Assembly: GCA_028712475.1 (NCBI GenBank)
Contig: JAQTQB010000012.1
Coordinates: forward strand, 8,029-72,028
Reading direction: 5' to 3'
Length of the DNA: 64,000 nt
Source of the DNA: Verrucomicrobiales bacterium
GTDB lineage: Bacteria > Verrucomicrobiota > Verrucomicrobiia > Limisphaerales > UBA11358
Shown here: one piece after another, positions 14,824 to 31,263 of the stretch
Position numbering within the stretch: position 1 is the first letter of the stretch
Layout of the letters: each line of letters begins with the position of its first letter
Translations under genes and position numbers: made by a program
The notes under the pieces: generated by a model
Told to the model about the DNA's origin: nothing
What the model saw: only the letters and a program-made list of their open reading frames with translations
Databases searched by the model: none

Positions 14824-16281
14824 TCAAGGCGCCAGCGGTTCGGCGTTGATTTCGATGCTGTTGGTGCCGGCGATCACCGCCGTTCCCGCGATGCGCGAGC
14901 TTGACCACGACAATTGATCCATCACCGCCGATTGTGACTGGCTTCCGCCGCCGCCGCCCCCAGCCAAACCGCTGCTGCCATCGGATGATTGCGGCGCGTT
15001 CGTCGCCGCGTTTGAAACCGCCAGCAGGTTTCCGGTGAACACCACGTTTTGTTTCAACGTCTGGTTCGTTCCACTCACGCGGAAGGAATATGTTTGTGCT
15101 GTCTGCGATTCATCCCGGCTGGCAATGGTTTTTGCCCGCTCAATTTGCGCCGTTGCGGTGATTATCGGAGGCGGCGCTGCCTTCGGGACCGGCGTATTTT
15201 GTGCGACCTCGCTTTCCGGCAGCAGCGAGCCGTCGTAAACCGAGCCGTCTGCGTCCACGACGCGGATCGCGTTTCCATTCTGCTGCACTTGAAAATTCAC
15301 CAGCACCGGAGCAGCCCTGGCCGGTGCGACGGTGTTCTTGAACGAGTTTTGCACACCGAATGCGAGAGGCTGCGAGGCGGCGGATGCGAATTGCATAAAG
15401 CCTGTCTGGGCGGCGAAATCTTTTTCAGCCGCGTTTCGCACTGCATCCAGCCGGTCAAAGTTTGACGCGGGAGCGGCGGGTTTGCTGGCTGCCAGTTCGC
15501 CGCCGCTTTGGGCAACGGCTCCCAAGCCGGCGAGTTTGGATTCATTCGGGCTGGCTTCGGATTTTAACTGCCCTGAAATGGGCGGCGCACCTGCGGCATT
15601 GCCGCTGACAACTGTGACTGCCGAGGGGACTTCTGCGAACTGCCGGCGCGCAGAATCGTCAAAGGCAACCAGTTGTGGCAGCCCGCGATTCGTCAGTTCA
15701 GAAAACCGCTTTTCTTTGACGATCTCGACGCGTCCGTCAGCGAACAGCACCGCGCGTCCTTTTTTATCCGTTGGCGAATACGCCAGCAAGGCATTGCTGG
15801 GCAATCCGTCCAGAGTTTCGCCGCCGGCGACGTAGATGAAGCGTTTGCCGCTCTCCGTGTCGGTCAAAATTTTGTCCGAGCCAAGCTGGTTTGTCAGCGC
15901 GTCGAGCGACGGCGGCAGCCGGCCATTATTTTCCTCGGCGGCCATCTGTGCGGCCAGGCCGATCTGCTTGAGGTTGTTCATGGCGGTGACTTGTTGCGAC
16001 TTGAATTTCGCCTTGCCCAACGCCGGCAAAAACAGCGTCGCGCCAAAGAAAATCATGAGCGCAAACACCGCCAGAAACGCCCACTGCCGGCGGAACAATT
16101 CCCACAGCGACATGTCCGCCTCTTCGTCCGGCTTGGGCGTGCTGCGGGCGACCTCGCTTTGCAGCATTCGGCGCGTCGCGGGATGCAGCTTGAACGCATC
16201 GCCCGCATCGGCGCGTCGTTTCTTCGCGTAAGCCCGCAGCAGTTTTTCAATTTTACGTTCCGGTTCCATTTCTTCGATCAT
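14824..16281 (-). CDS. membrane anti-sigma factor with a pseudopilin-like (H-X9-DG/DUF1559-like) ectodomain
   Basis: Its start overlaps the sigma gene stop (ATGA at 16278-16281). It has a cytoplasmic N-terminus, one TM (WAFLAVFALMIFFGATLFLPAL), then [23 protein letters not shown]...AVLFADGRVEIV and a poly-Gly tract. Confidence 0.6.
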   Translation of the reverse strand: MIEEMEPERKIEKLLRAYAKKRRADAGDAFKLHPATRRMLQSEVARSTPKPDEEADMSLWELFRRQWAFLAVFALMIFFGATLFLPALGKAKFKSQQVTAMNNLKQIGLAAQMAAEENNGRLPPSLDALTNQLGSDKILTDTESGKRFIYVAGGETLDGLPSNALLAYSPTDKKGRAVLFADGRVEIVKEKRFSELTNRGLPQLVAFDDSARRQFAEVPSAVTVVSGNAAGAPPISGQLKSEASPNESKLAGLGAVAQSGGELAASKPAAPASNFDRLDAVRNAAEKDFAAQTGFMQFASAASQPLAFGVQNSFKNTVAPARAAPVLVNFQVQQNGNAIRVVDADGSVYDGSLLPESEVAQNTPVPKAAPPPIITATAQIERAKTIASRDESQTAQTYSFRVSGTNQTLKQNVVFTGNLLAVSNAATNAPQSSDGSSGLAGGGGGGSQSQSAVMDQLSWSSSRIAGTAVIAGTNSIEINAEPLAP

Positions 16282-16898
16282 GGATTAGACGGGAAAACGT
16301 CCGGGGTTTCCCGTGAAAAGATTTTCCGCGCGATTTCCTCCAGCCGGTCGAGGCATTTGCTCAAGCGCGAACTGACGGTCTTCACGTTCAAATTCAACGT
16401 CGCGCTCAATTCTTCATAACTCAAGTCGCCAAAATAGCGCAGCTCGACGATTTCGCGGCACGGTTCGTCCAGTTGGTCGAGCGATTCGCGCATCAGGCCG
16501 ATCTGCTCGGCGTTCATCAGAAATTCATCCGGGCCGGGCGCGTTCGAGGGCGGATCGGGCAACAGGCCGGTCTCCGGATTTTCCGCCTGGAGCGAAATCG
16601 GCGTCTGCCCGCCGCCGCGCTTGGCGGCGATCCGTTTCTCGCGGAAGTCGCGCGCCTTGTTCGTGGCGATGCGGAAAAGCCACGTCTGAAACTGGCTTTC
16701 GCCGTTGAACGCATTGAGGCTTTTGATGACGGAGAGGAAGACTTCCTGGCAGATTTCATCCGCGTCCTCATGGCTGAAGTCGGGCGCGAGCTGGAAGATG
16801 AAACGCCCCGCCGCCGCGTAATGCGCGTCGAACAGTTTGTCCCACGCGTCCGCCTCGCCGCGCCGGCAGCGCGCCAGCAGTTCCATTTCGGAATCCAT
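16278..16898 (-). CDS. ECF-type RNA polymerase sigma-70 family factor
   Basis: Region 2 (ICQEVFLSVIKSLNAFNGESQFQTWLFRIATNKARD) and region 4 (REIVELRYFGDLSYEELSATLNLNVKTVSSRL). Confidence 0.9.
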   Translation of the reverse strand: MDSEMELLARCRRGEADAWDKLFDAHYAAAGRFIFQLAPDFSHEDADEICQEVFLSVIKSLNAFNGESQFQTWLFRIATNKARDFREKRIAAKRGGGQTPISLQAENPETGLLPDPPSNAPGPDEFLMNAEQIGLMRESLDQLDEPCREIVELRYFGDLSYEELSATLNLNVKTVSSRLSKCLDRLEEIARKIFSRETPDVFPSNP

Positions 16899-16972
16899 GC
16901 GGCTTGGACTCTATTTCAAACCGCCGCGTTTGAACAGAATTTCCCGGATCCGCCGCGCCAGCCGCGCCGCTG

Positions 16973-17014
16973 CATCCTCTCCGCCTCGAACGGGGAGAGG
17001 GTTTGGGTGAGGTG
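16973..17014. repeat. GEGRGEG-type GC palindrome (single arm pair)
   Basis: catcctctccgcctcgaacggggagagggtttgggtgaggtg. Same family as 2458-2612, 19269-19330 and 61918-62072. Confidence 0.6.
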
Positions 17015-17121
17015 TCGAATTCAACCACGAATAAACACAGATGCTTTCAACCGCGAACCACGCGAACCACGCGGACAAAATAAATCCAAAATCCCTTTCG
17101 CGTATTTCGTTTATTTCGCGG

Positions 17122-17631
17122 TTACAACAACGCCCGCTGAATCCGCCGCAGCAGACGCGCTTCGTTTTGTGGTTTCATGGTGGCCCGCCGCAAGGTGTGT
17201 TCCCAGATCCGCAGCACCCACCAATTGGCCGACCGCAAGGTCCGTGTCACCAAAAGATCGCGGGCGATGTTGCGGGCAAATTTGTTTTTCCAGAAGGCGC
17301 GGTTGCCCTTGGGATGGGTCCCGTGCTTGGGACAGCCATGCCAGAAACAACCGTCCACGAAGACCGCCGTGCGCGATTTGGGAAAAACAAAATCCACCCT
17401 CACCCATAGCAGCCGAGGTGACGAGGCTCCGACTGATTTTCGGATAGAAGAATGAGCCTCCTCACGTCGGCTGCTACGAACGGCGAGGGTGACCTGCCGC
17501 CGCCAGCCGGTGATTTTGTGCCGGCGGAATAGTTTTGCCAGCGCGACCTCCGTGTCCTGGTTTCCGCGCGAGCGGATGTGCGACATCACTTCCGAACGCT
17601 TGGATTTGGAAAACACATCAGCCATAGACAC
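17122..17631 (-). CDS. vsr: very-short-patch repair endonuclease (Vsr) carrying an in-frame repeat insertion
   Basis: KSKRSEVMSHIRSRGNQDTE, DFVFPKSRTAVFVDGCFWHGCP, NRAFWKNKFARNIARD and WWVLRIWEH. About 30 extra residues sit between GWRRQ and VDFVFP and coincide with the family A repeat. Confidence 0.8.
   Translation of the reverse strand: MSMADVFSKSKRSEVMSHIRSRGNQDTEVALAKLFRRHKITGWRRQVTLAVRSSRREEAHSSIRKSVGASSPRLLWVRVDFVFPKSRTAVFVDGCFWHGCPKHGTHPKGNRAFWKNKFARNIARDLLVTRTLRSANWWVLRIWEHTLRRATMKPQNEARLLRRIQRALL
17406..17479. repeat. family A palindromic element inside vsr
   Basis: atagcagccgaggtgacgaggctcc...gagcctcctcacgtcggctgctacga. Homologous to 6427-6511 and 8618-8700. Confidence 0.75.
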
Positions 17632-18031
17632 AGATTACACTAATTTCCACAGATTCAATCCGTGCCAATCCGTGAAATCCGTGTGTCGCTTCGCTGACGC
17701 CGTTCTTCGCGTCCAAAAACGAAGTTGAAGTTTCTGAAACAAGAGAAAACGAATATCAACTCTACCGTTTGTTCAATTTTACTCGGCAACCAAAGCTTTT
17801 TGTTTTACCTGGATCGCTTCGTAATACTTGTTCGCTCGACCCAATCCAGTATGCAGCACTGCCGCGCTGAAATTATTTCAGCCGGTTGATTTTGATTTCC
17901 TTTTCGACGGCCAGGAACTCATCGTAGATTGCGATGAGTTCTCCGTTCCCGTGGCGGACCCCCATCCAATGGGCGAGGGATACAAGAGTGAGAAGTTTTC
18001 CTTGCGTGCTTGGCACTCTTTTGCGGCCATG

Positions 18032-18277
18032 TCAGCGTTCCCTTTCCCGCTTCCGTTCCGCCATGAAGGTTTCCATCGCCTTGGTGCCTTTCAAGGAGCC
18101 GCGCAGGCTTTTGATGTAGGAACGGGTGATGGGTTTCAGCAGGATGCCTTCGGGAGTGGAAACGACCGTGGCCTTGGTGCCTTCCTCAATCTTAAATTCC
18201 TTGCGCAGGCGGCGGGGAATCACCACCTGGCCCTTCGTGCCGAAATTCACGGTCTCCAGCTTCAAGGTCGCAATCAT
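18032..18277 (-). CDS. AbrB/MazE/SpoVT-family antitoxin-like DNA-binding protein
   Basis: 81 aa. The swapped-hairpin motif GTKGQVVIPRRLRKEFKIEEGTKATVVSTPEGILLKP is followed by a charged tail. Confidence 0.7.
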   Translation of the reverse strand: MIATLKLETVNFGTKGQVVIPRRLRKEFKIEEGTKATVVSTPEGILLKPITRSYIKSLRGSLKGTKAMETFMAERKRERER

Positions 18278-18438
18278 GCAGGCAAGTTAGACCGGAATTC
18301 AAAAGCATGTCAAATCTGCTTCGTATGACTTGTTGACAATTGTAGCCGGCGCGGCGGGGCGGCTAAGTTTTCTTTCGTCCAAACCGGTTTTTAACAAAGC
18401 CATGGGAGCATTTTCGCCCGCCTCCCGTCAGACTGGAT

Positions 18439-21400
18439 ATGAAAAGGATCATGCTCGCATTGCTGGCCTGCGCGTTCACCAGTTTGGTCGCCGCAGGAAA
18501 ACCGGTTTCCACGCCGTCCGGCGACTTCGCCGTGCGCGAAATCCATTACGCCGCGCAACTCGCCGCCGACGAGGCGCGGCTCACGCTCAACCTTGAAGCC
18601 GATGCCACCGGCGCAAGTTCAGTGAAGATTCTGGAAGGCGACGTGGCCGTGCTGCCCGCGAAGTTGCCGGACGCGCTGAAAATCGTCCGCGACAAAAATT
18701 CCTACCTGCTCGTCGCGTCGCGCGCCGGCCATTTCAAATTCAGCCTGGAGGTCGTCGCCAAAATCCAGCGCGCCGAGCCGTGGAACCAGATTTCCTTCAC
18801 CGGCCCGGCGGCGACGATTGCATCCGTCACCGCGCAGGCCGCCGGCACGAACACCGATGTCCAGTTGCTCGCCGGCACGCTGCTGGAATCGTTCAAGACG
18901 AACGGCGTTTCCGGCGTGAAAGGTTTTCTCGGCGCGGAGCAAACGGTCGCGTTGCGCTGGCAGGGCAAGGTCACCGAAGTCGCACGCAAGGCGTTGCTCA
19001 CCGTGGATTCCGTCATCGCCGCTCAAGTCACGCCGACGGTCATCAAATACACCAGCAAGTTTCACTACGACATCGTGCAGGGCAATGTCGCGCAGCTCAC
19101 GCTCACGCTGCCCGCCGCGCAGGCGCTGACCAAGCTGGAAGGCGAACAGATCCGCGACTGGCACACGACGACCGTGGGCGATCAGCAAACGCTCACCGTC
19201 GAATTCATCAAGCCGCTGGAGAAAAGCTATGACCTCGTGATTTATTCCGAGCAGGCTGTGGAAGGCAGCCCCCTCACCCGTCCTTCGGACACCCTCTCCC
19301 CCATCGGGGGAGAGGGACGGGGTGAGGGGGCCGGCTTGAATACAGCGCTGAACCCGCCACAGCCGCTGGACACCGAGCGTGAATCGGGTTCGCTCACGGT
19401 CTTTGCCGAGGACACGCTGGTGGAAGTCGTCACGCTGAACGGATTGCGCCAGGTCAACGCGCCGGACAACGCCGTCGTCGCCTACCGCTTCAACGCGCGG
19501 CCGTTCGCACTCGCGCTGAAATTGAAACACATCGAACCGGTTGTCAGCGTGGCCGACCGCGTGAATGCCCGGCTCGAGGAAACGCGGCTCATCATTTCGC
19601 ACAACCTCGCGCTGAACGTCGAGAAGGCTGGAATCTACTCGCTGGAATTGACGCCGCCGCCGGGCTTCGCCGTCGCGGATGTTCGCGGTGACGGCATCGA
19701 GGATTGGAAATCCGGCGGCGACAAACTGACGGTGAATTTTTCCGCGCGCGTTCTGGGTGCGCGAAAGCTCGAGGTGCAACTGGAGCAGGCGCTGAAAACT
19801 TTTCCCAAACAAATTTCCGTCGCGCCGCTGCGCGTGACGGGCGCGGCGAAGGAAACGGCGGAGATCGGCGCGGCTTCGGCTGCTGGAATTCGCCTGAAAA
19901 CTTCGGAACTAAGCGGGCTGCGTGAAATTTCAGTGAACCGTTTGCCGGACCGCGCCGATGAAATCCTGGCGTTCACCGCCGAGCAGCCGGACTGGAAAGT
20001 TTCCATCGCCAGCGAACGCCTTGCCGCGCGCGTCGTGGCGGACGTTTTCAATTTGGTGACGATCGGCGACGGCGTGGTCGGCGGCAGCGCGACGATCCGT
20101 TATGGCCTCGTGAACCAGGGCGTGCAGGAATTCAAGGTGCGCGTGCCGGAGAATTGCAAGAACGTCGAGTTCACCGGCCCGAACATCCGGCGCAAGGAAG
20201 TGTCGGACGGTATCTGGACGATCGGCCTGCAGGACAAGGTCTGGGGCGGCTATACGCTGGTCGTCACCTACGATTTTCAATTCGACGCGAAGGGCGCGAC
20301 GCTGCCGCTGGGCGGCATTCACGCGGTGGACGTGGAGCGCGAGACGGGTTCGGTCGCGGTCACGACGGCGGCAAGTTTGCAGCTCAACGCAAAGATTTCC
20401 GGCGAGACGCTGCATCGCGTGGATGAGACGGAATTGTCCGCCGCCGACCGTTCGCTCGTCACGCGCGCGGTGATTCTCGCCTGGCAATACACCGGCGACC
20501 AATACGATTTGGCCGTGGCCGTGCAGCGTTTTGCCACCGAGCCGGTGCTGGAAGCCGTGGCCGACCGCACGCAAATCACCTCCGTGCTGACCGAGGCCGG
20601 CGAGATGCTCACGCAGGCGTCGTTCATGGTGAAGAACAATGAGAAACAATTTCAACGCTTTCAACTTCCGCGCGACGCGAAACTGTGGGGCTGCTACGTC
20701 AACGGCCAGCCCGCCAAGCCGGAACGCGACGGCGACTGGGTGCTGGTTTCACTGCCGCGCGATTTGAACCGCGACCAGGCGTTCGCCGTGGACATCATGT
20801 ATGCGCAGACGAACGGCGCGCTCGCCTCCACGTTCGGCAAGACGCTCGAACTTTCCGCGCCGCGCACCGACGTGCCAAACACTTACGCCGAATGGCAGTT
20901 GTTCGCGCCCGCGTCGCTGCGGCTGTCGGATTTCGGCGGCAGCATGAGCGTCACCCAGGGCACGACCTACGAACTGCTCGATGCGTGGGGGAAATTCCTG
21001 AAGTTCTACGGCGAAGTGCTGCGCGAGATGGGCGCCAGAATTCTGGTCTTCATCTTCCTCGCGCTGCTGGTCTTCGCGCTCGTCATCTTTGCGGTGAAAC
21101 GCGGTGCCAGCGGCGTCATCGAACTGCTGGTCGTCGTGGCCATTCTGGCCATCCTCGCCGCAATGATGCTCCCCGCGTTGAGCAAGGCTAAATTCAAGGC
21201 GCAAAGCATCAGTTCGATGAACAACCTCAAGCAAATTGGCCTCGCGGCAAGAATTTGGTCCGGCGACAATGGCGAGCGGCTGCCGGCCTCGTTCGAGGAG
21301 ATGAAAAACGAACTTGGCACGGACAAGATCACTTACGACCCCGCGACCGGCCAGCGTTACACCTATCTCGGCGGCGGGATGTCGCTGGACAGCCTCAAGC

Positions 21401-24400
21401 CCGATTCCGTCCTGGCCTACAGCACGATTGACAAGGGCCGCTGCGGAGTGTTGTTCGCCGACGGCAGCGTGCAGCAAATGACCGCTGAAAAATTTGCCGA
21501 GCTTTCGCAGCGCGGCCTCGTGCAGGTTGCCGCGCCGTCAGAACTTGCCGTGAGCCAGCGCGAGGTTGTCGCGCGCGGCCAGCTTGGCGACGGGCGGCCA
21601 GTTGCAGTTGCCGCTCCGGCGGGTCATTTTGCGGTGAACGGCACTGCGGGTGCAATGGGCGGCGGGGGCGGGGGCGGCGGCACAGCATTTTCAGTCGCGC
21701 CGCCCGCCACGCCAACGGCGTCCGGCATCCGTTCCATCCGCATTGAACTGCCGCAGACGGGCACGCCATTCCTGTTCACGAAAGTTTTGAACGTCCACGG
21801 CGAACCGCTTTCCATCCGCGCCAAAATGATTCCGCTGCACACGTTCCAGACGTTTCAAATGCTGTGGCAATCGGCGGCGTTTTTGCTCGGCCTCGTCGTG
21901 TGGTGGACGCAATGGCATCGCGCCAGCCGCAGCACGTTCATCCTCACCCTGGCGCTGGCGCTCGTCGCCGGCTCGGTGTGCAGCCTGTTGATCCAGTGGC
22001 GCGCGTTGCATGATGCGCTGATCGTCGGATTCCCGGTCACGGTCGTCGCCATCATCGCGCTGCTGGTCTGGAAATACTGGCCGCGCGGAACAAAGCCGGA
22101 AACAAAAGATGAACCGCCGATCATCCAGCCAACTGCGCCGGCCAATCCCATAGCCCCGTTGACCGCCGCCATCGCCCTGCTGCTCGCCATCAATTGCACC
22201 AGCGCATCCGCCGCCGAATCCGCAATCCGCGATCCACAATCGCAAATCGCCAATGCCTCGATTGTCTCCGCAGTTTATTCCGGCACGGTGAACGACCGCG
22301 TGGCGCTGCTCGACGCGACACTGCAATTTTCTGCGGTGAACATTGGCGACAACGTCCCGCTCTTTGGCGACGACGTGGCGGTGCAGCAGTTCACGGTGAA
22401 GAATGGCAAGGCGGAGCTTGTGCGCAACGGCGGGAGCATTTCCGCGAAGTTCGGCAGCAAGGGCAGCGTGACGTTGCAGGTCAAGATGCTCGTCAAAGTT
22501 TCCGGCGACGTGACGAAACGGCGGCTGACGTTCGCGATTCCCGCCGCGCTGTCGAGCCGCGCCGGATTTGCGCTCGCCGAATCCGAGGCCGACGTGGATT
22601 TCCCGGCGGCCATCTCCTTCAAGCGGATTTTGAAAAAGAACCAGACGCGCGTCGAAGCCGTGATGGGTTCCGCCGACCGCGTCGAGCTGCTCTGGACGCC
22701 GCGCGTGAAACGCGCCGAGGAGGTTGCCGCCACGGTTTTTTGCCGCAACGCCGCGCTGGTCACGTTCGGCGGCGGCGTGATGAACGTCCGCGCCACACTG
22801 GATTATCAGATCACGCAAGGCGAGTTGCGCCAGGCGCGCGTGCAACTGCCCGCCGGACAAAAACTGCTGCGTGTCGAGGGCCGCGACATCCGCACCTGGG
22901 AGATCAAGGAGGCGAACGGCGCGCAAACGCTCGTCGTGGACTTGATGAAGGGCATTCCGCTTGGCTGGCAACTGACGGTGGAAACGGAAAAAATCCTGGA
23001 CGCGCTGCCGGCGGACGCGGCGGTGGAACTGCCGCACGCGCTGGACGTGAAACGCGAGAACGGCCTGGTGGCCTTGCGCGGTTCGGATGAACTCGGGCTG
23101 TCCCTGGGATCTTCGAGCGGCCTGGAGCGCGTGGACGCGGAGGAATTTGCGCGGGTCAGCGCGGTGAAGGCGGACAAATTGTTCAGCGTGTTCCGGTTTG
23201 CAGACGCAAAATTTTCGCTGCGCGTTCGCGCCGAGGCGTTCCAGCCGGAGATCGAGGCCGTCGTGAAGAATAATCTCCGCGTGGGCAGCGAACAGATTTT
23301 GCTTTCGGCCCGGGTGGATTACACGATCAAGCGCGCCGGGGTGTTCGCATTGAAATTGGTTCTGCCCGACGGCTACCGCGTCGAGCGCGTGACCGGAAGC
23401 AACATCCAGCAGCAGGCCGAGCGGGTGGAAACAGGAGCGCCGGCCTCCGGCCCGGCCAGTGCGGCAAACGAATCGGAACGCGCCGGGTCGGAGACCGGCG
23501 CTCCACGGCGCGTGCTGGAGGTGACGTTGAAAGACCGCGTCACGGGCGCTTACTCGTTGAACGTCGAGCTGGCGCGCAGCTTCAAGGAGCTGCCGGGGAA
23601 AATTTCCATCGCGGGCGTGCATCCGCTCGGCGCGTCCAAGCTGACGGGATTCGTCGCGGTGTCCGCAGACGCGGGCGTGGCGGTGAAAACAGAATCGTTC
23701 GACGGACTGACGGAGATTCCGGCGGTGTCGCTGGCGGATTACGCGAACGCCGGTGGCGGCAGCGTGCTGGCTTACAAATTCATTTCCGCCGAGCCGAAGT
23801 CCGCGCCGGAATGGAAATTGAGCGTGGCCACGGAAAGTGTTTCCGCCTGGGTGCGCGCGGAGATCGTGAACAGCTTCACGCTCACCGAGACGCTCGTGAG
23901 CGGGCGCGCGCAGGTGCGCTACGAAATCGCCAACGCGCCGGTGAAAGAGCTCCGCGTGCGCGTGCCGGCGGAGTTCAAGAATGTCGAGATCACCGGCGCG
24001 AACATCCGCAGCCGCGAATTGAATGGTCACATCTGGCATGTGGAACTGCAAAGCCCGACCCGTGGATTTTATCTGCTCACCGTGACGTGGGACCAACCGC
24101 GCACGGCGCAATCCGGTGCGGTGGAACTGGTGGGAATTTCCGCCGCTGGCGTGGAACGCGAGTCGGGCTTGCTGGCGATCTCGGCGAAGTCGCCGTTGCA
24201 GGTCAGTGAATCGGCGGCGACGGATTTGCAGCGCGTGGACACGGGCGATTTCCCCGACTGGGCGGGCGTGCCGGACACCGCGACGACGCTGGCGTATCGC
24301 TACGTCCGGCCCGGATACAAGCTCGCGCTCGGCGTGCGGCGCTTCGACGACGCGGCGGTGCTGGAAGCGCTCGTGGACAGCGCCAGGTTCACCAGCGTCG

Positions 24401-25413
24401 TCGCCGATGACGGCCAGATGATGACGGAGATGGCTCTTACGGTGCGCAACAATGGCCGGCAATTTCTGGAGATCGAACTGCCGGCGGACGCGAAGGTGTG
24501 GTCGGCGTTTGTCGCCGGCCAGCCGGTGCGGCCCAGTTCACGCAATGGGAAACTGCTGCTGCCCATCGAATCGTCCGGCGATGGCGACATGACGGTGGAA
24601 CTGACCTATGTCGGCACGAATGTCTTTCCGCGCGCGAAAGGCTCCGTTGGATTCGTCTCGCCGAAGTTTGACGTGCCGTTGAAGAACGCGCGCTGGGAAA
24701 TCTATCTGCCGCCGGATTACGCCTATCAAAATTTCCAGGGCACGATGACGCGCGCGATCGCGTCCAGGCCGGAAACCGCGTCGTCGAGTTTCTCGCTCCT
24801 CGATTATTCGCGCATGGAACAGACCGGCAAGGAGACGGCGCGGGTGGATTTGCAGCGCGACGTGAGCGAGGCGCGGCGGCAGCTCGCCGGCGGCAACGTG
24901 CGCGTGGCCACCGAAAGTTTCAACCGCGCGAAGGCGAAATTTTCCGCCGACAAGGACGGCGGCGACGTCGTGAAAAAGCTGGAAAGCGACTTGAAATCCG
25001 CACAGGCGAGCAATCTCATCAACGCGCAGAACGATTTTGCCTACCGCAACAGCGGCTCGGTGGCCGCCACCGACCTGCCGGTGCAGAACGCCAGTGTGAA
25101 TTTGTATTACGACAGCGAATCGGCGCAGCAGCAATGGACGAAATTGCAGGCGGCGCAGGAGATTGTTACGGCCAGGGTGCAGCCGCTGCGGGTGAACCTG
25201 CCGGTGCGCGGCCAGCATTTCGCCTTCACCCAGGTGTTGCAGACGGAAGGCGGTCGGCCGATGACGATCCAGCTTTTCGCCGCCAGCACCAAGGCCGTGA
25301 GCTGGCCGATGCGCGGCCTGACAGCGGTCGGCGCGTTTCTGTTGCTTTGGGCGATGGTCGCGGTTTTGTCGCGCCTCACCTTGCGTGCGGACACAGTAAG
25401 AACATCAGTTTGA
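18439..25413 (+). CDS. giant (2324 aa) envelope protein: two paralogous beta-rich modules fused, with an internal pseudopilin-like module and 6 internal TM helices
   Basis: Signal peptide [20 protein letters not shown]. Module 1 (about 18526-21050) and module 2 (about 22260-25300) align along their length. Example pairs: [24 protein letters not shown] with [24 protein letters not shown]; [14 protein letters not shown] with [14 protein letters not shown]; [16 protein letters not shown] with [16 protein letters not shown]. The ORF is uninterrupted and ends in a C-terminal TM. Confidence 0.75.
19269..19330. repeat. compact GEGRGEG-type palindromic element in frame inside the giant ORF
   Basis: ccccctcacccgtcc...ctctcccccatcgggggagagggacggggtgaggggg, translated as [22 protein letters not shown]. 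The corresponding position in module 2 lacks it. Confidence 0.7.
21112..21540 (+). other. pseudopilin-like (type IV pilin N-terminal helix + H-X9-DG-like) module embedded in the giant ORF
   Basis: [49 protein letters not shown]...[13 protein letters not shown]. It is collinear with and similar to residues about 85-215 of the anti-sigma factor at 14824-16281. Confidence 0.7.
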
Positions 25414-25596
25414 TTTTGTTCGCGGCGTCACGGTCGGCTTGCTAGGTTGCGCGGGCATGAAAAATTGCGGAAACCTTTTCACGTCCGCGTTGTTTTAAAT
25501 GCCAACATCTGCCATGACCACCACCCATCTTGAAGCCCGCGCTCTCCGTGCCAAGTTGCGCGGGCTGGCGGCATCCGGCAGCAGGAAGGCCCGCGC

Positions 25597-26610
25597 ATGA
25601 GTGAGCAGAACCAGTTTCTCCTCTACACCGCGCCGGACGGGGCGGTGAAGGTGGATGTTGTCTTGAAGGACGAGACGGTGTGGCTGACGCAGAAAGCGCT
25701 GGCAGAGTTGTTCGGCGTGAAGCGACCGGCCATCACGAAGCACTTGCAGAACATCTTCGCCACCGGGGAGCTGGCCGAGGATTCAGTATGTTCCATTTTG
25801 GAACATACTGCCGGGGACGGAAAAACTTACTCGGCCAAATATTACAATCTCGATGCCATCATTGCCGTTGGCTACCGCGTCAACAGCTATCAGGCCACGC
25901 AGTTCCGCATCTGGGCGACGAAGACGCTGCGGGAATTCATTATCAAGGGTTTCGTGATGGATGACGAACGGCTGAAGCAGGGCAAGCAGGTCTTCGGCAA
26001 GGATTATTTCGACGAGTTGCTGGAACGCATCCGGGAAATCCGGGCCAGCGAGCGGCGGTTTTATCAGAAGCTCACGGACATTTACGCGCTGGCGGTGGAT
26101 TACAGTCCCGATGCGCCGGTGACGAAGGAGTTTTTCGCCACCGTGCAGAACAAGCTGCACTGGGCGATCACCGGCCAGACGGCGGCGGAGTTGATCTACG
26201 CCGCCGCCGATGCGACGAAGATTTACATGGGGCTGACGACGTGGAAGCACGCGCCGGGCGGAAAGATTCTGAAGTCGGATGTGACCGTGGCTAAGAATTA
26301 TTTGAGCGAGGCGCACGTAAAGGAATTGAACCGCATCGTCTCGGCCTACCTCGACCTGGCGGAGAACCGGGCCGAGCGGGGCATCCTGATGAAGATGACG
26401 GACTGGGCCAAGTTTCTGAACAGTTTTCTGGAGTTGTCGAACTACCCGATTCTGCAAGACAAAGGCAAGGTGAGCGCGCTGGAGGCGAAGCTCAAAGCGG
26501 AAGGCGAATACGAGGTGTATCGCCAGCGACAGGACGCCGAATACATCTCGGACTTCGATCGGGAGATCAAACACATCGAAGGCAGGAAACCCAAGCCGCC
26601 GAAGGAATGA
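25597..26610 (+). CDS. RhuM-family protein
   Basis: N-terminal LYTAPDGAVKVDVVLKDETVWLTQKALAELFGVKRPAITKHLQNIF and YNLDAIIAVGYRVNSYQATQFRIWATKTLREF are typical of RhuM-family proteins as I recall them. Confidence 0.7.
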   Translation: MSEQNQFLLYTAPDGAVKVDVVLKDETVWLTQKALAELFGVKRPAITKHLQNIFATGELAEDSVCSILEHTAGDGKTYSAKYYNLDAIIAVGYRVNSYQATQFRIWATKTLREFIIKGFVMDDERLKQGKQVFGKDYFDELLERIREIRASERRFYQKLTDIYALAVDYSPDAPVTKEFFATVQNKLHWAITGQTAAELIYAAADATKIYMGLTTWKHAPGGKILKSDVTVAKNYLSEAHVKELNRIVSAYLDLAENRAERGILMKMTDWAKFLNSFLELSNYPILQDKGKVSALEAKLKAEGEYEVYRQRQDAEYISDFDREIKHIEGRKPKPPKE

Positions 26611-26635
26611 ACCGCTTTAATTTCCAAGACATACG

Positions 26636-27586
26636 ATGACACCCACCAACATTGAAGCAGCCCGTGAAACGTGCAAGAAAATCGCGAGTAACATAGCAAC
26701 GATCATCCGCGGTCAGACGGACGCCACGCGCAACCTGGTCGCCACGCTCGCGGCGGGGGGGCATGTGTTGCTGGAGGATTTTCCTGGCACGGGCAAGACG
26801 ACGCTGGCCAAGGCGCTCGCGCGCTCGATTGACGCACAGTTCAAGCGCCTGCAATTCACGCCGGACCTGCTGCCGTCGGACATCCTCGGCGTGTCGGTGT
26901 TCAGCCAGCGCGACCAGTTGTTTCATTTTCACGAAGGGCCGGTGTTCACCAACATCCTGCTGGCCGACGAGATCAACCGCGCCTCGCCGCGCACGCAGTC
27001 GGCCCTGCTTGAGGCGATGGGCGAAGCGCAGGTGAGCGTGGAGGGTGAACGCCGGAATCTTTCGGAATTGTTTTTTGTCATCGCGACCCAGAACCCGGTG
27101 GAATTTCGCGGCACCTATCCGCTGCCGGAGGCGCAGATGGACCGGTTCGCCATGCAGTTCACGCTCGGCTACGTCGCGCCTGAAGAGGAAGTGGCCATCC
27201 TCACCGCGCAGCAGCACAATCATCCGCTCGATGAATTGAAACCCGTTGTGACGCTGGCGGACGTGCTGGCGCTCAAGCGCGCGGTCGAGGACGTGCGCAT
27301 CAGCGATGAATTGAAGCGTTACGCGGTGGACCTGGTCGCCGCCACGCGCACCGCGAGCGGGGTGCAACTGGGCGCCAGCCCGCGCGCGTCCATTGCCTTG
27401 ATGAAGATCGCGCAGGCGCTGGCGCTGTTCGACGGTTTTGATTTCGTCACGCCTGAACAGATACAGAAGCTGGCCGTGTCGGTCATCGCGCACCGGCTGG
27501 TGCTGGAGCCGCAGGCGCGCTTTTCCGGGGTGACGGCGCGCAGCGTGGTCGAGGACGCGGTGAAGAAATTGAAAGTGCCGGCGTGA
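26636..27586 (+). CDS. MoxR-family AAA+ ATPase
   Basis: Walker A LLEDFPGTGKTTLAKALA, Walker B ILLADEINRASPRTQSALLEAM. 316 aa. Confidence 0.9.
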   Translation: MTPTNIEAARETCKKIASNIATIIRGQTDATRNLVATLAAGGHVLLEDFPGTGKTTLAKALARSIDAQFKRLQFTPDLLPSDILGVSVFSQRDQLFHFHEGPVFTNILLADEINRASPRTQSALLEAMGEAQVSVEGERRNLSELFFVIATQNPVEFRGTYPLPEAQMDRFAMQFTLGYVAPEEEVAILTAQQHNHPLDELKPVVTLADVLALKRAVEDVRISDELKRYAVDLVAATRTASGVQLGASPRASIALMKIAQALALFDGFDFVTPEQIQKLAVSVIAHRLVLEPQARFSGVTARSVVEDAVKKLKVPA

Positions 27587-27595
27587 AAGAAAATT

Positions 27596-27689
27596 CAAAA
27601 TTAAAAATGTAAAATTAAAAAGCATTTTATGCGCGCCGCGAAATTTCCCTGCCTCGTTTTTTAATTTTTAATTTTGCATTTTTAATTTG
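27596..27689. repeat. AT-rich palindromic element built from (TTTTTAA)-type heptamers
   Basis: The arm caaaattaaaaatgtaaaattaaaaag pairs with ttttttaatttttaattttgcatttttaatttg. It lies between moxR and the DUF58 gene and reaches the DUF58 TTG start. A related array lies at 33634-33660. Confidence 0.65.
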
Positions 27690-29036
27690 CCGGTGAAGCC
27701 GATCTACCAATTGATTTACTGGGGCTATCGCGCCACGAGCGGCGGGTGGTATTGGGCGAGCCGGCGGTTCACGCTGGCGGGCTTGTGCGTGGCGGGCGGT
27801 TTCATCGTGGCGGGCGCGGTCGGCTCGGACATCGAGAACACCGTCATTTACCAGGCTTTCGCGCTGTTGCTGGCGCTGTTGCTCCAGGCCTTCGCGTGCA
27901 GTTTTTTCTTTCGCGCCAGGTTTTCCGCGACCCGTTCCCTGCCGCGATTTGGAACGGCGGGCCTGCCGCTTCAATATTCACTGCGGGTGAAAAACCTCAC
28001 CGCGAAAACCCAGGCCGGCCTGACGCTGCTGGAAGAAGTGGCCGACCCGCGCCCGAAGTTTCCAGAATGGCTGGCGTTTCAAATGGCCGAAAGCCGGCGC
28101 GTCCGCCCGTTCCGGGTCACACAACGGCGAAGGAAGAATCCGTTCCGGCTCGCGACGGTGAAGGAAATGGAAATGCCACCGATGCCGCCGAATGGGGAGA
28201 CCGAAGTGCGCGTGGAGGTTTTGCCCATGCGGCGCGGAGTCCTGCATTTCACAGGAGTGACTCTGGCGCGGCCCGATCCGCTGGGATTGTTCCGCTCGTT
28301 CGTAAAAATTTCCGCGCCGCAGACCGCCTTGATTTTGCCGAAGCGTTATCCGATTCCAACCATCGCGCTGCCGGGCGCGTTGCGTTATCAGGAAGGCGGC
28401 GTGGCTCTGGCGGCGAACGTCGGGCGCAGCGAGGAATTTGTCTCGTTGCGCGAGTATCGGCACGGCGATCCGATGCGGCACATCCACTGGCGGAGCTGGG
28501 CCAAGGTCGGCAAGCCCATCGTGAAGGAGTTCGAGGATGAATTTTTTGTGCGTCACGCGCTGGTGCTGGACACCTTCGACGAGGAGCCGAACAGCGAAAT
28601 TTTGGAGGAGGCGGTGTCTGTCGCGGCCTCCTTCGCCTGCACGATTTTGACGCAAGAATCGCTGCTCGATTTGCTGTTCGTCGGCAACCAGTCGTATTGC
28701 TTCACCGCCGGTCGCGGGCTGGCGCACGCGGAACAGATGCTGGAAATCCTGGCCTCGGTAAAAAATTGCGCGGACAAGAAATTCGAGACGTTGGAACACC
28801 TTGTCATCAGCCATATTTCAGCCGTGAGCGGCTGCATCTGCGTGCTGCAACGCTGGGACGAGGCGCGGAAAAGCTTCGTGAAGAAATTGCGCGCGCTCAA
28901 CATTCCGTTGCTGGTGCTGGTCGTGGTGGGGGCGGGCGAAAAGAAACCGGACGCCGGGCCGATGCGCGACGAGCCGGAAAATTTCCGCGTTCTGGAGATC
29001 GGTCGCATCGCGGAAGAACTGGCGAAATTACAGTGA
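27687..29036 (+). CDS. DUF58 domain protein (MoxR partner)
   Basis: Two N-terminal TM helices and the motif SLREYRHGDPMRHIHWRSWAKVGKPIVKEFE. TTG start in the ORF track. Confidence 0.8.
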   Translation: MPVKPIYQLIYWGYRATSGGWYWASRRFTLAGLCVAGGFIVAGAVGSDIENTVIYQAFALLLALLLQAFACSFFFRARFSATRSLPRFGTAGLPLQYSLRVKNLTAKTQAGLTLLEEVADPRPKFPEWLAFQMAESRRVRPFRVTQRRRKNPFRLATVKEMEMPPMPPNGETEVRVEVLPMRRGVLHFTGVTLARPDPLGLFRSFVKISAPQTALILPKRYPIPTIALPGALRYQEGGVALAANVGRSEEFVSLREYRHGDPMRHIHWRSWAKVGKPIVKEFEDEFFVRHALVLDTFDEEPNSEILEEAVSVAASFACTILTQESLLDLLFVGNQSYCFTAGRGLAHAEQMLEILASVKNCADKKFETLEHLVISHISAVSGCICVLQRWDEARKSFVKKLRALNIPLLVLVVVGAGEKKPDAGPMRDEPENFRVLEIGRIAEELAKLQ

Positions 29037-29041
29037 AAGCC

Positions 29042-29144
29042 AAACATCCAACTTTGAACATTCAACGCCCAACATTCAATGGGCGGACGGAGTTCGCTGG
29101 CTGCGTTCGATGTTCGAGGTTCGAGGTTGAACGTTCGATGTTTC
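29042..29144. repeat. heptamer-periodic palindromic element, family D (aacattcaac / gttcgaggtt arms)
   Basis: aacatccaactttgaacattcaacgcccaacattcaa ... ttcgatgttcgaggttcgaggttgaacgttcgatgtt. A sister copy lies at 54648-54743. Confidence 0.7.
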
Positions 29145-29151
29145 CCCGCTT

Positions 29152-31263
29152 ATGAAAACGCCGCCGTTTCTTCTTCTGGCCACCCTCGTTTTCTGGGGCT
29201 GGCAGTCGGGATTTTTGCTCGCCGGCGCAATCATGGGCGTTGTGCTGGAAAGCGCGCGACTCGTCAAGGTGCGGTGGGATTTGACGGAGGAGGATTTCCG
29301 CCGGATCTGGAATTTTTGCGTGCTGCTGGCGCTCGCGCTGGTGGTCTATGCCTTTGCCGCGAACGAGGAGGGCGGAGGATTGAGCGGTTTGCTTCAGTCT
29401 TCAGCCGCCGCAGCAACCCGCAACGCCGGCCTTTCCGCGACCGCGTTTCTGCGCTGGCTGCCGATGACGCTGTTCTTGTTCATCGCCGCACAATTGTTCA
29501 GCGAGCGAGGGGCCGTGCCGCTCTCGGCGATTTCATTCTTCGCCCGCAGGCGGAAAGGGAGCGGGACAGCGGAACGACATGTAAATGTTTCGTATCCGTA
29601 TTTCATCGTGTGCCTGTTCTCCGCCGGCATCCACGCAAACCAGGGGACGCACACGTATTTTTTTGGACAAGCCATCCTGATCGTGTGGGCCTTGTGGTCG
29701 TTGCGTTCGCGGCGGTTTGGCATCGTGGCCTGGCTGTGCGCGCTTGCGGTGGTGATGGGGATCGCTTACGCCGGCCACCTTGGCGTCAATCAGGTGCGGC
29801 AGATGCTCGAAGGTTACAACGCGCAGTGGATTGCGCGCTTCATGCGGCAAAGAACGGATGCCGCGCTAAGCGTCACGTCCATGGGACAGATCGGGAGCTT
29901 GAAATTGTCACCGCGCATCGTCATCCGGCTGGAGCCGAAAAATGGCGGCGCGCCGCCGGAATATCTGCGGGAGGCGAGCTACCGGAGCTACCGTTCGCTT
30001 AAACAAACGTGGCATGTGGGTGATTCGCGGGACGAATTCACGGATCTGCTGGCCGAAACAAATGGCACGACCTGGGTTTTGCTGCCCGGCAAAACCAACT
30101 CCTCGGTTGTCAACATCGCGTGCTACCTGAATGGCTGGTCGCGGGATCTTGACGCGCCAGATGGTTTGCTGCCATTGCCGGCGGGCAGTGGCCGGCTGGA
30201 AAAACTTCCCGTGTTTACGCTAAAAACCAGCAAGAACGGCGCGGTGCTGGCCGGCGGCCCGGGCCTGGTGATTTTTGATGCGCGTTACGGCCCAGGTGCG
30301 ACGATTGATTCACCACCAGCCAGCACCAATTTTGATCTGGATGTGCCGACCAATGAAGTTCCGGCGCTCGACCTGGTGGTTTCCGAAATGGACATTTCCG
30401 GCGCGAACACACGGCAGAAACTTCGCGCCGTCCAAAATTTTTTCGCGGGCAAGTTCACCTACAGCACCTGGCAGGGGCCGGACAAGGCGGCGCGCACGAA
30501 CGAGACCGTGCTGGGCCGTTTTCTGCTGAACAGCCGCAGCGGCCATTGCGAATACTTCGCCACGGCCACGGTCTTGCTGTTGCGGCAGTTGAACATCCCG
30601 GCGCGTTATGCGGTCGGCTACGTCGTCCACGAAAAATCCGGCCGCGGCTACGTTGTCCGCGAACGTGACGCGCACGCGTGGTGCCTCGCGTGGGACGATC
30701 AGGCCAAAGCTTGGGTGGATTTTGACACCACGCCGGGTTCGTGGGTGGCGGAGGAAGGCAAACGTGCGTCGCCGCTGGAATGGCTCTCGGATGCGCGGTC
30801 GTGGCTCGGGTTTCAGTTCGCAAAATTCCGCTGGGGCCAGACCAATTTGCGCCAGTATGTCCTGTGGGCGCTGGTTCCCGTGCTGGCGTTGCTGCTCTAT
30901 CAGATCATCTTCCGGCGCGGCCGCAGACGCCGGATGCGGCCAAAAACTGGAATCTCCGCCGCCGCGATTTTCTGGCCGGGTCTGGACTCCGAATTTTACC
31001 TGCTCGAACGCAGACTGGCCGCGCTCGGCGTGCCGCGGCAGCCCAGCGAACCGCTGTCAGACTGGCTGGCTCGCGCGCTGGCCGATCCGGCGCTGGCCGG
31101 TTTGCGGACGCCATTGCAGGAACTGTTGCGGCTGCACTACCGCCATCGCTTCGACCCGGCCGGCTTGAGCAACGAAGAGCGGGAAACGCTGGCTCGTGAA
31201 ACAAAAACCTGTCTAGACAGCCTGTCCATGGCGGCGGGGTTCTTACGCGCTGATCGGGCTTAA
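29152..31263 (+). CDS. transglutaminase-like membrane protein (TgpA-like)
   Basis: N-terminal TM bundle. Cys-His-Asp core contexts SGHCEYFATATVLLLRQLNIPARYAVGY, RDAHAWCLAW and VDFDTTP. One late TM. Confidence 0.85.
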   Translation: MKTPPFLLLATLVFWGWQSGFLLAGAIMGVVLESARLVKVRWDLTEEDFRRIWNFCVLLALALVVYAFAANEEGGGLSGLLQSSAAAATRNAGLSATAFLRWLPMTLFLFIAAQLFSERGAVPLSAISFFARRRKGSGTAERHVNVSYPYFIVCLFSAGIHANQGTHTYFFGQAILIVWALWSLRSRRFGIVAWLCALAVVMGIAYAGHLGVNQVRQMLEGYNAQWIARFMRQRTDAALSVTSMGQIGSLKLSPRIVIRLEPKNGGAPPEYLREASYRSYRSLKQTWHVGDSRDEFTDLLAETNGTTWVLLPGKTNSSVVNIACYLNGWSRDLDAPDGLLPLPAGSGRLEKLPVFTLKTSKNGAVLAGGPGLVIFDARYGPGATIDSPPASTNFDLDVPTNEVPALDLVVSEMDISGANTRQKLRAVQNFFAGKFTYSTWQGPDKAARTNETVLGRFLLNSRSGHCEYFATATVLLLRQLNIPARYAVGYVVHEKSGRGYVVRERDAHAWCLAWDDQAKAWVDFDTTPGSWVAEEGKRASPLEWLSDARSWLGFQFAKFRWGQTNLRQYVLWALVPVLALLLYQIIFRRGRRRRMRPKTGISAAAIFWPGLDSEFYLLERRLAALGVPRQPSEPLSDWLARALADPALAGLRTPLQELLRLHYRHRFDPAGLSNEERETLARETKTCLDSLSMAAGFLRADRA

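Follow-up and report, generated by a model that had tools for sequence, protein, structure and literature searches.

The gene and its locus

The gene considered here belongs to a Verrucomicrobiales bacterium (GTDB Limisphaerales; UBA11358) and lies within a 64,000-nucleotide stretch of contig JAQTQB010000012.1 (positions 8,029 to 72,028, assembly GCA_028712475.1), which is referred to as the window. It is a single open reading frame (ORF) of 2324 codons that encodes two large paralogous envelope modules, A and B, joined through a region that contains six transmembrane (TM) helices and a small pseudopilin-like insert. The genes for an extracytoplasmic function (ECF) sigma factor and an anti-sigma-like membrane protein are found upstream on the opposite strand, whilst a RhuM-family gene followed by genes for a MoxR ATPase, a DUF58 protein and a TgpA-like transglutaminase are found downstream. 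The features of the locus are collected in Table 1.

The initial annotation, which was made from the sequence alone, described an uninterrupted frame whose two halves are collinear paralogs, and both statements are borne out. When residues 1–1000 are compared with residues 1201–2324 by BLASTP, residues 49–848 and 1294–2122 fall into one collinear alignment of 860 columns with 28.7% identity (E 3.5e-94). The motif LP..G..F.FT.VL, which had been noted towards the end of both paralogs, occurs twice in the protein, at residues 1104 and 2254, each time directly before a hydrophobic helix, and in both AlphaFold2 models it forms the first strand of a beta-hairpin that runs into the TM helix. The components that had been recognised in the linker, namely the pilin-like helix, the H-X9-DG-like domain, the Gly tract, the TM helices, the Pro-rich linker and the signal-peptide-like sixth helix (TM6), are all present.

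Table 1. Features of the two-module gene and its surroundings, with positions in the window
Feature	Position	Strand	Basis
Anti-sigma-like membrane protein, 485 aa	14824..16281	-	BLASTP match to the insert of the giant protein; adjoins the ECF sigma gene in orthologous loci
ECF sigma factor	16278..16898	-	Sigma70_r2, Sigma70_r4_2, Sigma70_ECF
ECF-type promoter-like motif GGAGCATTTTCGCCCGCCTCCCGTC, ending 9 nt before the ATG	18405..18429	+	Same place in orthologs; 2 exact copies in the 3.4-Mb genome
Two-module ORF, 2324 aa	18439..25413	+	Open frame
N-terminal signal peptide of module A, residues 1-22, cut predicted before GKP	18439..18504	+	Hydropathy; helix 2-13 in model
Module A, all-beta array, residues ~30-835	18526..20943	+	AlphaFold2, pLDDT mostly >90; Foldseek ribophorin I/Ost1 E 1e-9
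GC-rich nested palindromic element, in frame within module A	19262..19337	+	Inverted repeats
TM1 (866-887), 5-residue cytoplasmic loop RGASG, pilin-like TM2 (893-916)	21034..21186	+	Hydropathy, model; sub-threshold pilin/GspG matches
Small alpha/beta pseudopilin-like, degenerate H-X9-DG-like globular domain, residues 917-1048	21187..21582	+	Model, weak profile matches; missing in L016, L017
Disordered Gly/Ala/Pro-rich linker with poly-Gly run	21583..21732	+	pLDDT <50 for residues 1048-1098
Membrane-proximal beta-hairpin of module A	21733..21834	+	Strands 1109-1115 and 1125-1132 in model; motif
TM3, TM4, TM5, residues 1138-1211	21850..22071	+	Hydropathy, model
Cytoplasmic Pro-rich linker, residues 1212-1237	22072..22149	+	Site of gene-splitting frameshifts in some relatives
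TM6, putative internal signal peptide, residues 1238-1254 then SASA|AES	22150..22212	+	Short h-region; A-x-A in orthologs; lipobox in distant members
Module B, all-beta array, residues ~1274-2101	22258..24741	+	AlphaFold2 pLDDT 85.8; Foldseek ribophorin I/Ost1 E 9e-9; paralog of module A
Helical coiled-coil-like stalk of module B, residues ~2120-2242	24796..25164	+	Four helices of 15-31 residues in model
Membrane-proximal beta-hairpin of module B (motif) and C-terminal anchor TM7 (2293-2315)	25210..25383	+	Motif, model, hydropathy
RhuM-family gene, genome-specific insertion	25597..26610	+	Pfam; no counterpart between giant gene and MoxR in L011, L012, L018, L019
MoxR (AAA_3), DUF58, TgpA-like transglutaminase/DUF4129	26636..31263	+	Pfam

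An ancient fusion

The 2324-aa gene is a genuine and ancient two-module envelope protein of Limisphaerales-type Verrucomicrobiota. In a six-frame search of 30 related genomes, many were found to hold one open frame of 2143–2613 aa with two matched regions, and 18 full two-module copies (2140–2607 aa) were retrieved from 17 related genomes. Across the phylum the two-module gene is present in 48 of 301 sampled genomes, representing 40 of 149 genera and including single-contig genomes, and in nearly all of the 48 the two matches lie inside one frame of 2000–2600 aa. When a profile was searched against 1.8 billion representative proteins, 2755 of them matched at E<=1e-30, and most of the best 150 of these contain two matched stretches within 2100–2600 residues, whilst at least 109 loci in a species-representative genome collection encode a relative. 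The named records that carry the gene all come from uncultured Verrucomicrobiota (Limisphaerales, 'subdivision 3', Pedosphaera). Several bins with a clearly verrucomicrobial version of the gene are titled Bifidobacteriaceae, Klebsiella or Proteobacteria (e.g. L038, L061, L096, L107) and are probably mislabelled.

The long frame could in principle have been created by an assembly or sequencing error that joined two adjacent genes, since the genome is a 29-contig metagenome-type assembly and the halves are two separate genes in some related records. The same architecture nevertheless recurs in dozens of independent assemblies, single-contig genomes included, and the split versions turn out to be frameshifts within the linker, with the B frame running on upstream, such that an artefact is hardly credible. 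The earlier proposal of a functional fusion thus stands, as it is supported by two-module frames in many genomes.

The relatives fall into two subfamilies. The first, S1, comprises the orthologs of the window gene, in which module A is 45–74% and module B 37–71% identical to the window copy. Members of the second, S2, are only ~22–25% identical and possess the six-TM linker without the pilin insert. In a maximum-likelihood tree all A modules are separated from all B modules by one branch (SH-aLRT, the Shimodaira–Hasegawa-like approximate likelihood ratio test, 92), and S1 and S2 recur in parallel inside the A side and the B side. The duplication and, most simply, also the fusion are therefore older than the split between S1 and S2. 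An extra N-terminal domain of ~230 aa, of the LamG or concanavalin-like type (PF13385), precedes module A in some members (L011, L014, L015; P0016, P0021, P0065).

The initial annotation had asked whether the halves occur elsewhere as separate adjacent genes, and the answer is divided. Beyond the group there are indeed single-unit relatives. P0100, a protein of 1155 aa that comes from a Sumerlaeia bin, and P0101, with 1111 aa, consist of a signal peptide, an array, a hairpin and a TM helix, and the shorter P0102 stops at the hairpin motif without a TM helix. The two apparently clean two-gene cases within S1, L029 (1406 + 1046 aa) and L030/L031 (1492 + 1022 aa), are frameshifts inside the cytoplasmic Pro-rich linker before TM6, and in both the B frame continues upstream through TM6. 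These two genomes are unrelated, and the L030 version was found in identical form in a second sample (L031). The breaks may be sequencing errors or real splits, and they fall exactly where two ancestral genes would have joined.

Architecture and fold of the modules

AlphaFold2 models were built with ~100 homologs for residues 1–1200 and 1254–2324, with confidences (predicted local distance difference test, pLDDT) of 84.3 and 85.8, respectively. Each module is modelled as an all-beta array of beta-sandwiches of ~800 aa, with several very long strands. In module B the array leads into a helical stalk of ~120 aa, followed by the hairpin and TM7. The position of the stalk in module A is taken by the two long helices TM1 and TM2, a small alpha/beta domain and the disordered Gly-rich linker, after which come the hairpin and TM3. 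The palindromic element within module A coincides with residues 280–295, the sole low-confidence loop in that part of the model, and residues 275–313 give short matches at unrelated sites in the window's own and related genomes.

The top Foldseek match in the PDB for both modules, independently, is ribophorin I/Ost1 (E-values in Table 1), followed by integrin alpha legs, complement and alpha-2-macroglobulin arrays and mu-homology domains. The ribophorin I matches are weak, with TM-scores of only 0.23–0.31 and a root-mean-square deviation of ~20 Å, and so the resemblance is an analogy of beta-sandwich pairs that provides no evidence of function; it may simply reflect generic beta-sandwich pairs.

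Sequence searches place the modules in no described family. The whole 2324-aa protein has no Pfam match at E<=1, Ribophorin_I included, and Pfam searches with distant relatives and S2 proteins likewise returned no family for the module. A sequence-profile search of the PDB gave only weak GspG and geopilin matches, confined to the pilin helix, and literature searches found no publication on the two-module family. The initial annotation had offered a likeness to BatD or DUF4139 proteins as an impression, which had to be abandoned. In six-frame searches of the window's own genome the BatD model (PF13584) matches two other genes and the DUF4139 model (PF13598) matches only a gene on contig C9, not the ORF. 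When a 36-sequence module profile was compared by hhalign with the BatD and DUF4139 proteins of the genome, the probabilities were 0.4% and 0.2%, respectively.

Topology and a putative internal signal peptide

Both modules are predicted to be periplasmic, because an even number of TM helices separates them and the protein begins with a signal peptide. The charge distribution around the TM helices is compatible with this topology without being decisive. The earlier placement of both large modules on one extracytoplasmic side is supported by these same two features.

The last helix of the linker, TM6, has the appearance of a Sec-type signal peptide, with a short h-region and conserved small residues at -3 and -1 or a lipobox. 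Across 131 two-module proteins its hydrophobic segment measures 16 aa in the median, compared with 19 aa for the other TM helices of the linker, and it is preceded by a Pro-rich, charged cytoplasmic loop. A strict A-x-A follows TM6 in 47 of the 63 distinct S1 junctions, and small residues occupy -3 and -1 in all 63, as in STATA|ADS, AGARA|ADF and SASA|AES. In distant members of the family TM6 can instead end in a lipobox: a regular-expression search found one at this point in 12 of the 131 proteins (e.g. LLSGC, LTASGC, AAAGC), where the frequency in the remainder of these proteins predicts 0.84, a ~14-fold enrichment, and several more can be recognised by eye. The A modules of S2 have lipoprotein-type signals at their start. 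In the window copy the junction between linker and TM6 (residues ~1213–1268) has no Met and hence no obvious internal start for B. The description of TM6 as signal-peptide-like in the initial annotation is strengthened by the short h-region, the conserved c-region and the lipoboxes of distant relatives.

The simplest reading of these features is that TM6 is the retained signal peptide of an ancestral gene B, with a cleavage site that would still be under selection, from which it follows that the protein may be cut by signal peptidase I into A and B subunits. Whether such a cut behind TM6 produces two membrane-anchored paralogous subunits in a 1:1 ratio is finely balanced. The giant protein might instead stay in one piece, with TM6 as the sixth helix of a polytopic protein with two ectodomains and the A-x-A or lipobox as a relic, and this is less likely than not, though far from remote. 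Bacteria rarely cleave internal signal sequences, a charged n-region is absent from TM6, and the fusion has been retained for a very long time, which would be needless if the halves only required co-expression. What speaks against an intact protein is that the c-region motif is conserved amid freely diverging surroundings, that lipoboxes are enriched at exactly the end of TM6 in distant members, that the h-region of TM6 is shorter than a normal TM helix and that frameshift-split versions persist in two unrelated genomes (L029, L030; the latter identical in L031).

The pseudopilin-like insert and its paralog in the anti-sigma-like protein

The helix TM2 and the small domain behind it resemble pseudopilins at a level below the curated thresholds. 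Among the NCBIfam models, GspG matches with E 6e-5, the GFxxxE model (TIGR02532) scores 10.5 bits against a cut-off of 16.3 and the H-X9-DG model (TIGR04294) scores 14.7 bits against a cut-off of 19, which places the insert outside that family. The weak matches of residues 893–1048 also include PilA. The window copy lacks the His of the H-X9-DG motif, and its orthologs show H-X6-DG. In the orthologs the loop and the beginning of the helix read RRGWNG[VI]LTLLAVV, so that in the canonical prepilin register the window has Ala at position -1, where the orthologs have Trp, whilst the Glu at +5 is Thr in most orthologs. The statement that the pilin-like helix has no obvious prepilin cleavage site is thereby supported.

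Hence the insert appears to be a domesticated pseudopilin rather than a substrate of a pilus machinery. A working prepilin would require that prepilin peptidase cuts the loop between TM1 and TM2, thereby separating module A from a protein of pseudopilin and module B destined for a fibre of the type II secretion or type IV pilus kind. The KRGASG loop and the pilin-type helix do have the topology of a prepilin leader, the window copy retains the helix Glu, and there are the weak PilA and GspG matches. Such a role is nonetheless very improbable, given the departure of the orthologs from the G|FTLIE register, the low GFxxxE score, the three further TM helices after the domain, which would block extraction into a fibre, and the lack of the globular part of the insert in two orthologs (L016, L017).

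The same domain is found in the neighbouring 485-aa anti-sigma-like protein, which has no match in Pfam or NCBIfam. Its TM helix and ectodomain are 47% identical to residues ~896–1040 of the giant protein (BLASTP, 146 aa, E 4e-40). The orthologous anti-sigma domains of L011, L012 and L018 are 49–65% identical to that of the window, compared with ~41–47% for the paralogous pairs, which indicates that the sharing of the domain is old and not the outcome of recent conversion. The globular domain is present in both proteins in five genomes, in neither in two and in the giant protein only in one.

An ECF-type promoter and a possible small regulon

When the upstream regions are aligned, GGGAG[CT]ATTT-N11-CCGTC stands out as a conserved block. 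It is separated from the ATG by 9 nt and has the form of an ECF promoter, with a GGAxC-type -35 and a CGTC -10 element. Its significance was assessed from empirical background counts in place of E-values. When a 370-nt region was scanned at each of 79 orthologous loci the motif was found in 23, against one match in 657 kb elsewhere in the same loci. The 3.4-Mb genome holds just two exact copies, one in front of the giant gene and one 39 nt upstream of a DUF4139-like gene on contig C9. Across 31 related genomes there are 36 matches, compared with five for a reversed control pattern, and nearly all of the 36 are followed, after 2–50 nt, by the ATG of a gene for a signal-peptide protein. In the loci that were examined, the motif precedes the giant gene in seven genomes and the DUF4139-like gene in four. 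A relaxed search of the window that allowed two mismatches gave only chance-level extra matches, with none upstream of the sigma gene or MoxR.

The distribution of the motif follows that of the sigma factor. An ortholog of the sigma factor is encoded in 18 of the 31 genomes, and the motif is found in 17 of these 18 and in none of the 13 others. This phyletic match provides good in-silico evidence that the sigma factor reads the promoter and acts on the giant gene beside it. The sigma gene adjoins the giant gene in L011, L012, L013, L016, L017, L018 and L019, and in close relatives the two genes diverge from a short spacer, which measures 137 nt in L012. The corresponding spacer of the window (16899–18438) holds an inserted vsr gene and an AbrB-like gene. 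The promoter at 18405–18429 is thus most likely read by the neighbouring ECF sigma factor, and the spacing of 9 nt to the ATG implies that the mRNA of the giant gene is probably nearly leaderless.

The second copy in the genome (contig C9:319468–319492; L117; L119:17469–17493, minus strand) stands before a DUF4139-like secreted protein in a 498-aa frame, which matches PF13598 with 27.8 bits, below the cut-off, and is followed by a family-2 glycosyltransferase gene. The pairing of the motif with a DUF4139-like gene is kept in three further genomes (G005, G007, G015). The motif also lies 9–13 nt before the ATG of a secreted family in which ...GLIIVHD... is followed by a Pro-rich region (L122, L126, L139, L142 and L147, in G021, G026, G022, G005 and G028, respectively), and upstream of two other secreted families (L133/L140; L124/L136). 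This distribution suggests that the motif marks a small ECF regulon whose genes encode envelope proteins and yield nearly leaderless mRNAs.

Gene neighbourhood

The ORF had originally been described as sitting just upstream of a MoxR–DUF58–transglutaminase triad. This holds for the window, where the RhuM gene intervenes (25414–26635 separates the giant gene from MoxR), and for the closest relatives, which account for four of the nine S1 loci examined. In these four (L011, L012, L018, L019) the MoxR, DUF58 and TgpA-like transglutaminase genes follow the giant gene directly, with a spacer of ~110 nt in L011 and L012, and as RhuM is not present there it represents an insertion in the window genome. 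The triad is not next to the giant gene in L013 and L015–L017, nor in S2. The ECF sigma/anti-sigma pair, which the initial annotation had not linked with the ORF, is the more widely conserved neighbour.

In S2 the upstream gene, of 900–1400 aa, encodes an anti-sigma-like N-terminus (LTALLLGELP) fused to vWF_A, VWA and YfbK_C domains (L021:11157–15476, L022:743–3904, L023:862–4761, L027:12504–15278), and it is preceded by the gene for a distant ECF sigma factor. Together with the triad of S1, this fusion indicates that a MoxR/vWA theme recurs around the family without a fixed operon.

It could be argued that the module is a BatD- or DUF4139-type protein that works with the downstream triad as a Bat-like, that is aerotolerance-operon-like, envelope complex. 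The order of genes in L011, L012, L018 and L019 fits such a complex, as do the vWA domains of the S2 fusion, since vWA proteins are the usual partners of MoxR, the BatD-resembling layout of signal peptide, beta-sandwiches and C-terminal TM helix, and the fact that the only other exact promoter copy in the genome precedes a DUF4139-like gene. A Bat-like role is nevertheless unlikely, as there is no Pfam match at E<=1, PF13584 and PF13598 match other genes of the genome and not the ORF, the hhalign probabilities are below 1%, and the triad is absent from beside the gene in L013, L015–L017 and S2. Moreover, a canonical Bat-like cluster with a real BatD is located elsewhere, on contig C9 (L119:321–4181), and comprises a second MoxR AAA_3 ATPase, a TPR/SH3 protein and a BatD of 594 aa.

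A model for the origin and role of the protein

The ancestral unit would have consisted of a signal peptide or lipoprotein signal, a beta-sandwich array of ~800 aa, a stalk, a membrane-proximal hairpin and a C-terminal TM anchor. Two tandem paralogs of this kind would then have been fused via the cytoplasmic Pro-rich linker, which would explain why TM6, the old signal peptide of unit B, comes after the anchor region of unit A (TM3–5). In the subfamily of the window the stalk of unit A was presumably replaced by a TM hairpin, of which the second helix, together with the small domain, would derive from an H-X9-DG-type pseudopilin that has lost its prepilin-peptidase site. Both beta arrays are expected to face the periplasm.

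The gene is envisaged to be driven by the ECF-type promoter, of the form GGAG[CT]ATT-N12-CCGTC, and the neighbouring sigma factor to read it, with a cognate anti-sigma factor whose periplasmic domain is a paralog of the pseudopilin-like domain of the giant protein. After membrane insertion, signal peptidase I would cut behind TM6 (ASA|AES) and unit B would be freed as a C-terminally anchored subunit in a 1:1 ratio with A. The pair might serve as a stress-regulated periplasmic scaffold or sensor whose assembly the anti-sigma factor monitors via the shared pseudopilin-like domain, such that the gene would be under homeostatic control; this role is proposed only tentatively.

Taken as a whole, the combination of an ancient fusion, an ECF promoter, processing at TM6 and a scaffold or sensor function is considered reasonably probable. 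Several points weigh against it. The cleavage at TM6, the transcription start and the assignment of the sigma factor to the promoter are all read from sequence. Triplets of the A-x-A kind are common in Ala/Ser-rich segments, and their count has no matched control at other TM ends, a background rate being available for the lipobox count only. TM6 itself has no positively charged n-region, the weakness of the ribophorin I fold match (TM-score 0.23–0.31) means that it says little on function, the co-occurrence of the anti-sigma domain and the insert of the giant protein rests on eight loci, and the MoxR–DUF58–transglutaminase neighbourhood is not conserved past close relatives.

A bolder version of the model, which must be regarded as doubtful, is that the giant protein is a natural membrane polyprotein that is cleaved at a Sec signal into 1:1 paralogs, with a lipid variant in some lineages, and that in S1 it is wired to the ECF sigma/anti-sigma pair through a pseudopilin assembly sensor. 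If the processing at an internal signal peptide or lipobox is real, it would represent a rare natural case of Sec-dependent polyprotein maturation in bacteria and a way of enforcing 1:1 stoichiometry in paralogous envelope subunits; for lipobox-type signals it would entail internal lipidation by Lgt/LspA in some lineages.

The giant gene is among the largest genes of many soil and freshwater Verrucomicrobia and is found in about a quarter of the genera of the phylum, yet lies outside Pfam and NCBIfam families. The analysis provides several handles on it: the unit architecture, a likely processing site, a promoter motif together with the ECF sigma factor that matches it, and a small regulon, which in this genome comprises the giant gene and a DUF4139-like gene. 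That a pseudopilin domain was recruited as an anti-sigma sensor, if correct, also bears on the large H-X9-DG/DUF1559 expansions of Planctomycetes and Verrucomicrobia.

Relation to known systems

Fused paralogous envelope proteins, ECF-controlled envelope genes and domesticated pseudopilins are all of known kinds. New are the findings that point to an internal signal peptide or lipobox, the match between promoter and sigma factor and the quantified paralogy of the anti-sigma ectodomain.

The similarity to BatD (PF13584) and DUF4139 (PF13598) proteins lies in the layout, in the company of MoxR and DUF58 in the closest relatives and in the DUF4139-like gene with the same promoter. It differs in that no sequence or profile similarity of the module was detected in the comparisons described above and in that the true BatD cluster is elsewhere in the genome. 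A parallel in gene order is provided by the PFNA cluster of bifidobacteria, which is arranged as pkb2-fn3-MoxR-DUF58-transglutaminase (PMC8430577), and where the gene for a large secreted or membrane-anchored beta-sandwich (FN3) protein likewise lies directly upstream of MoxR–DUF58–transglutaminase (PMC8430577). The parallel extends to gene order only, as the phylum and the ectodomain family are different and the regulator is a kinase, not an ECF sigma factor.

Ribophorin I/Ost1 (6s7o_E, 8b6l_O, 6ezn_A) is matched by both modules with a Foldseek probability of 1.0 over ~430–450 aligned columns, and like the modules it is a type I membrane protein in which beta-sandwich domains are followed by a TM anchor. 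The identity is 9–12%, however, the module is twice as long, and no partners of the oligosaccharyltransferase (OST) kind are known for the giant protein.

With the type II secretion pseudopilins and H-X9-DG proteins of Planctomycetes and Verrucomicrobia (DUF1559-type; TIGR02532, TIGR04294 and GspG, TIGR01710) the insert shares a hydrophobic helix followed by NNLKQIGLA and a small alpha/beta domain ending in VLFADGSV. Unlike these proteins, it scores below all of the curated cut-offs, has no Gly at -1 and sits in the middle of a polytopic protein, and a domain of the same type also serves as the ectodomain of the anti-sigma-like protein.

A precedent for the processing proposed at TM6 is the FbcH precursor of cytochrome b/c1 in Bradyrhizobium japonicum, which, in the work of Thony-Meyer, Hennecke and others between 1989 and 1991, reportedly has an internal signal sequence and is cleaved after membrane insertion. 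FbcH is a bacterial membrane polyprotein; its second protein retains an internal signal sequence and is released by the cleavage, as is suggested for unit B of the giant protein. The two are unrelated in sequence and function, and cleavage has been demonstrated for FbcH whereas for the giant protein it is a prediction. Moreover, the predicted products of the giant protein are paralogous to each other, and some members of its family carry a lipobox in place of the A-x-A.

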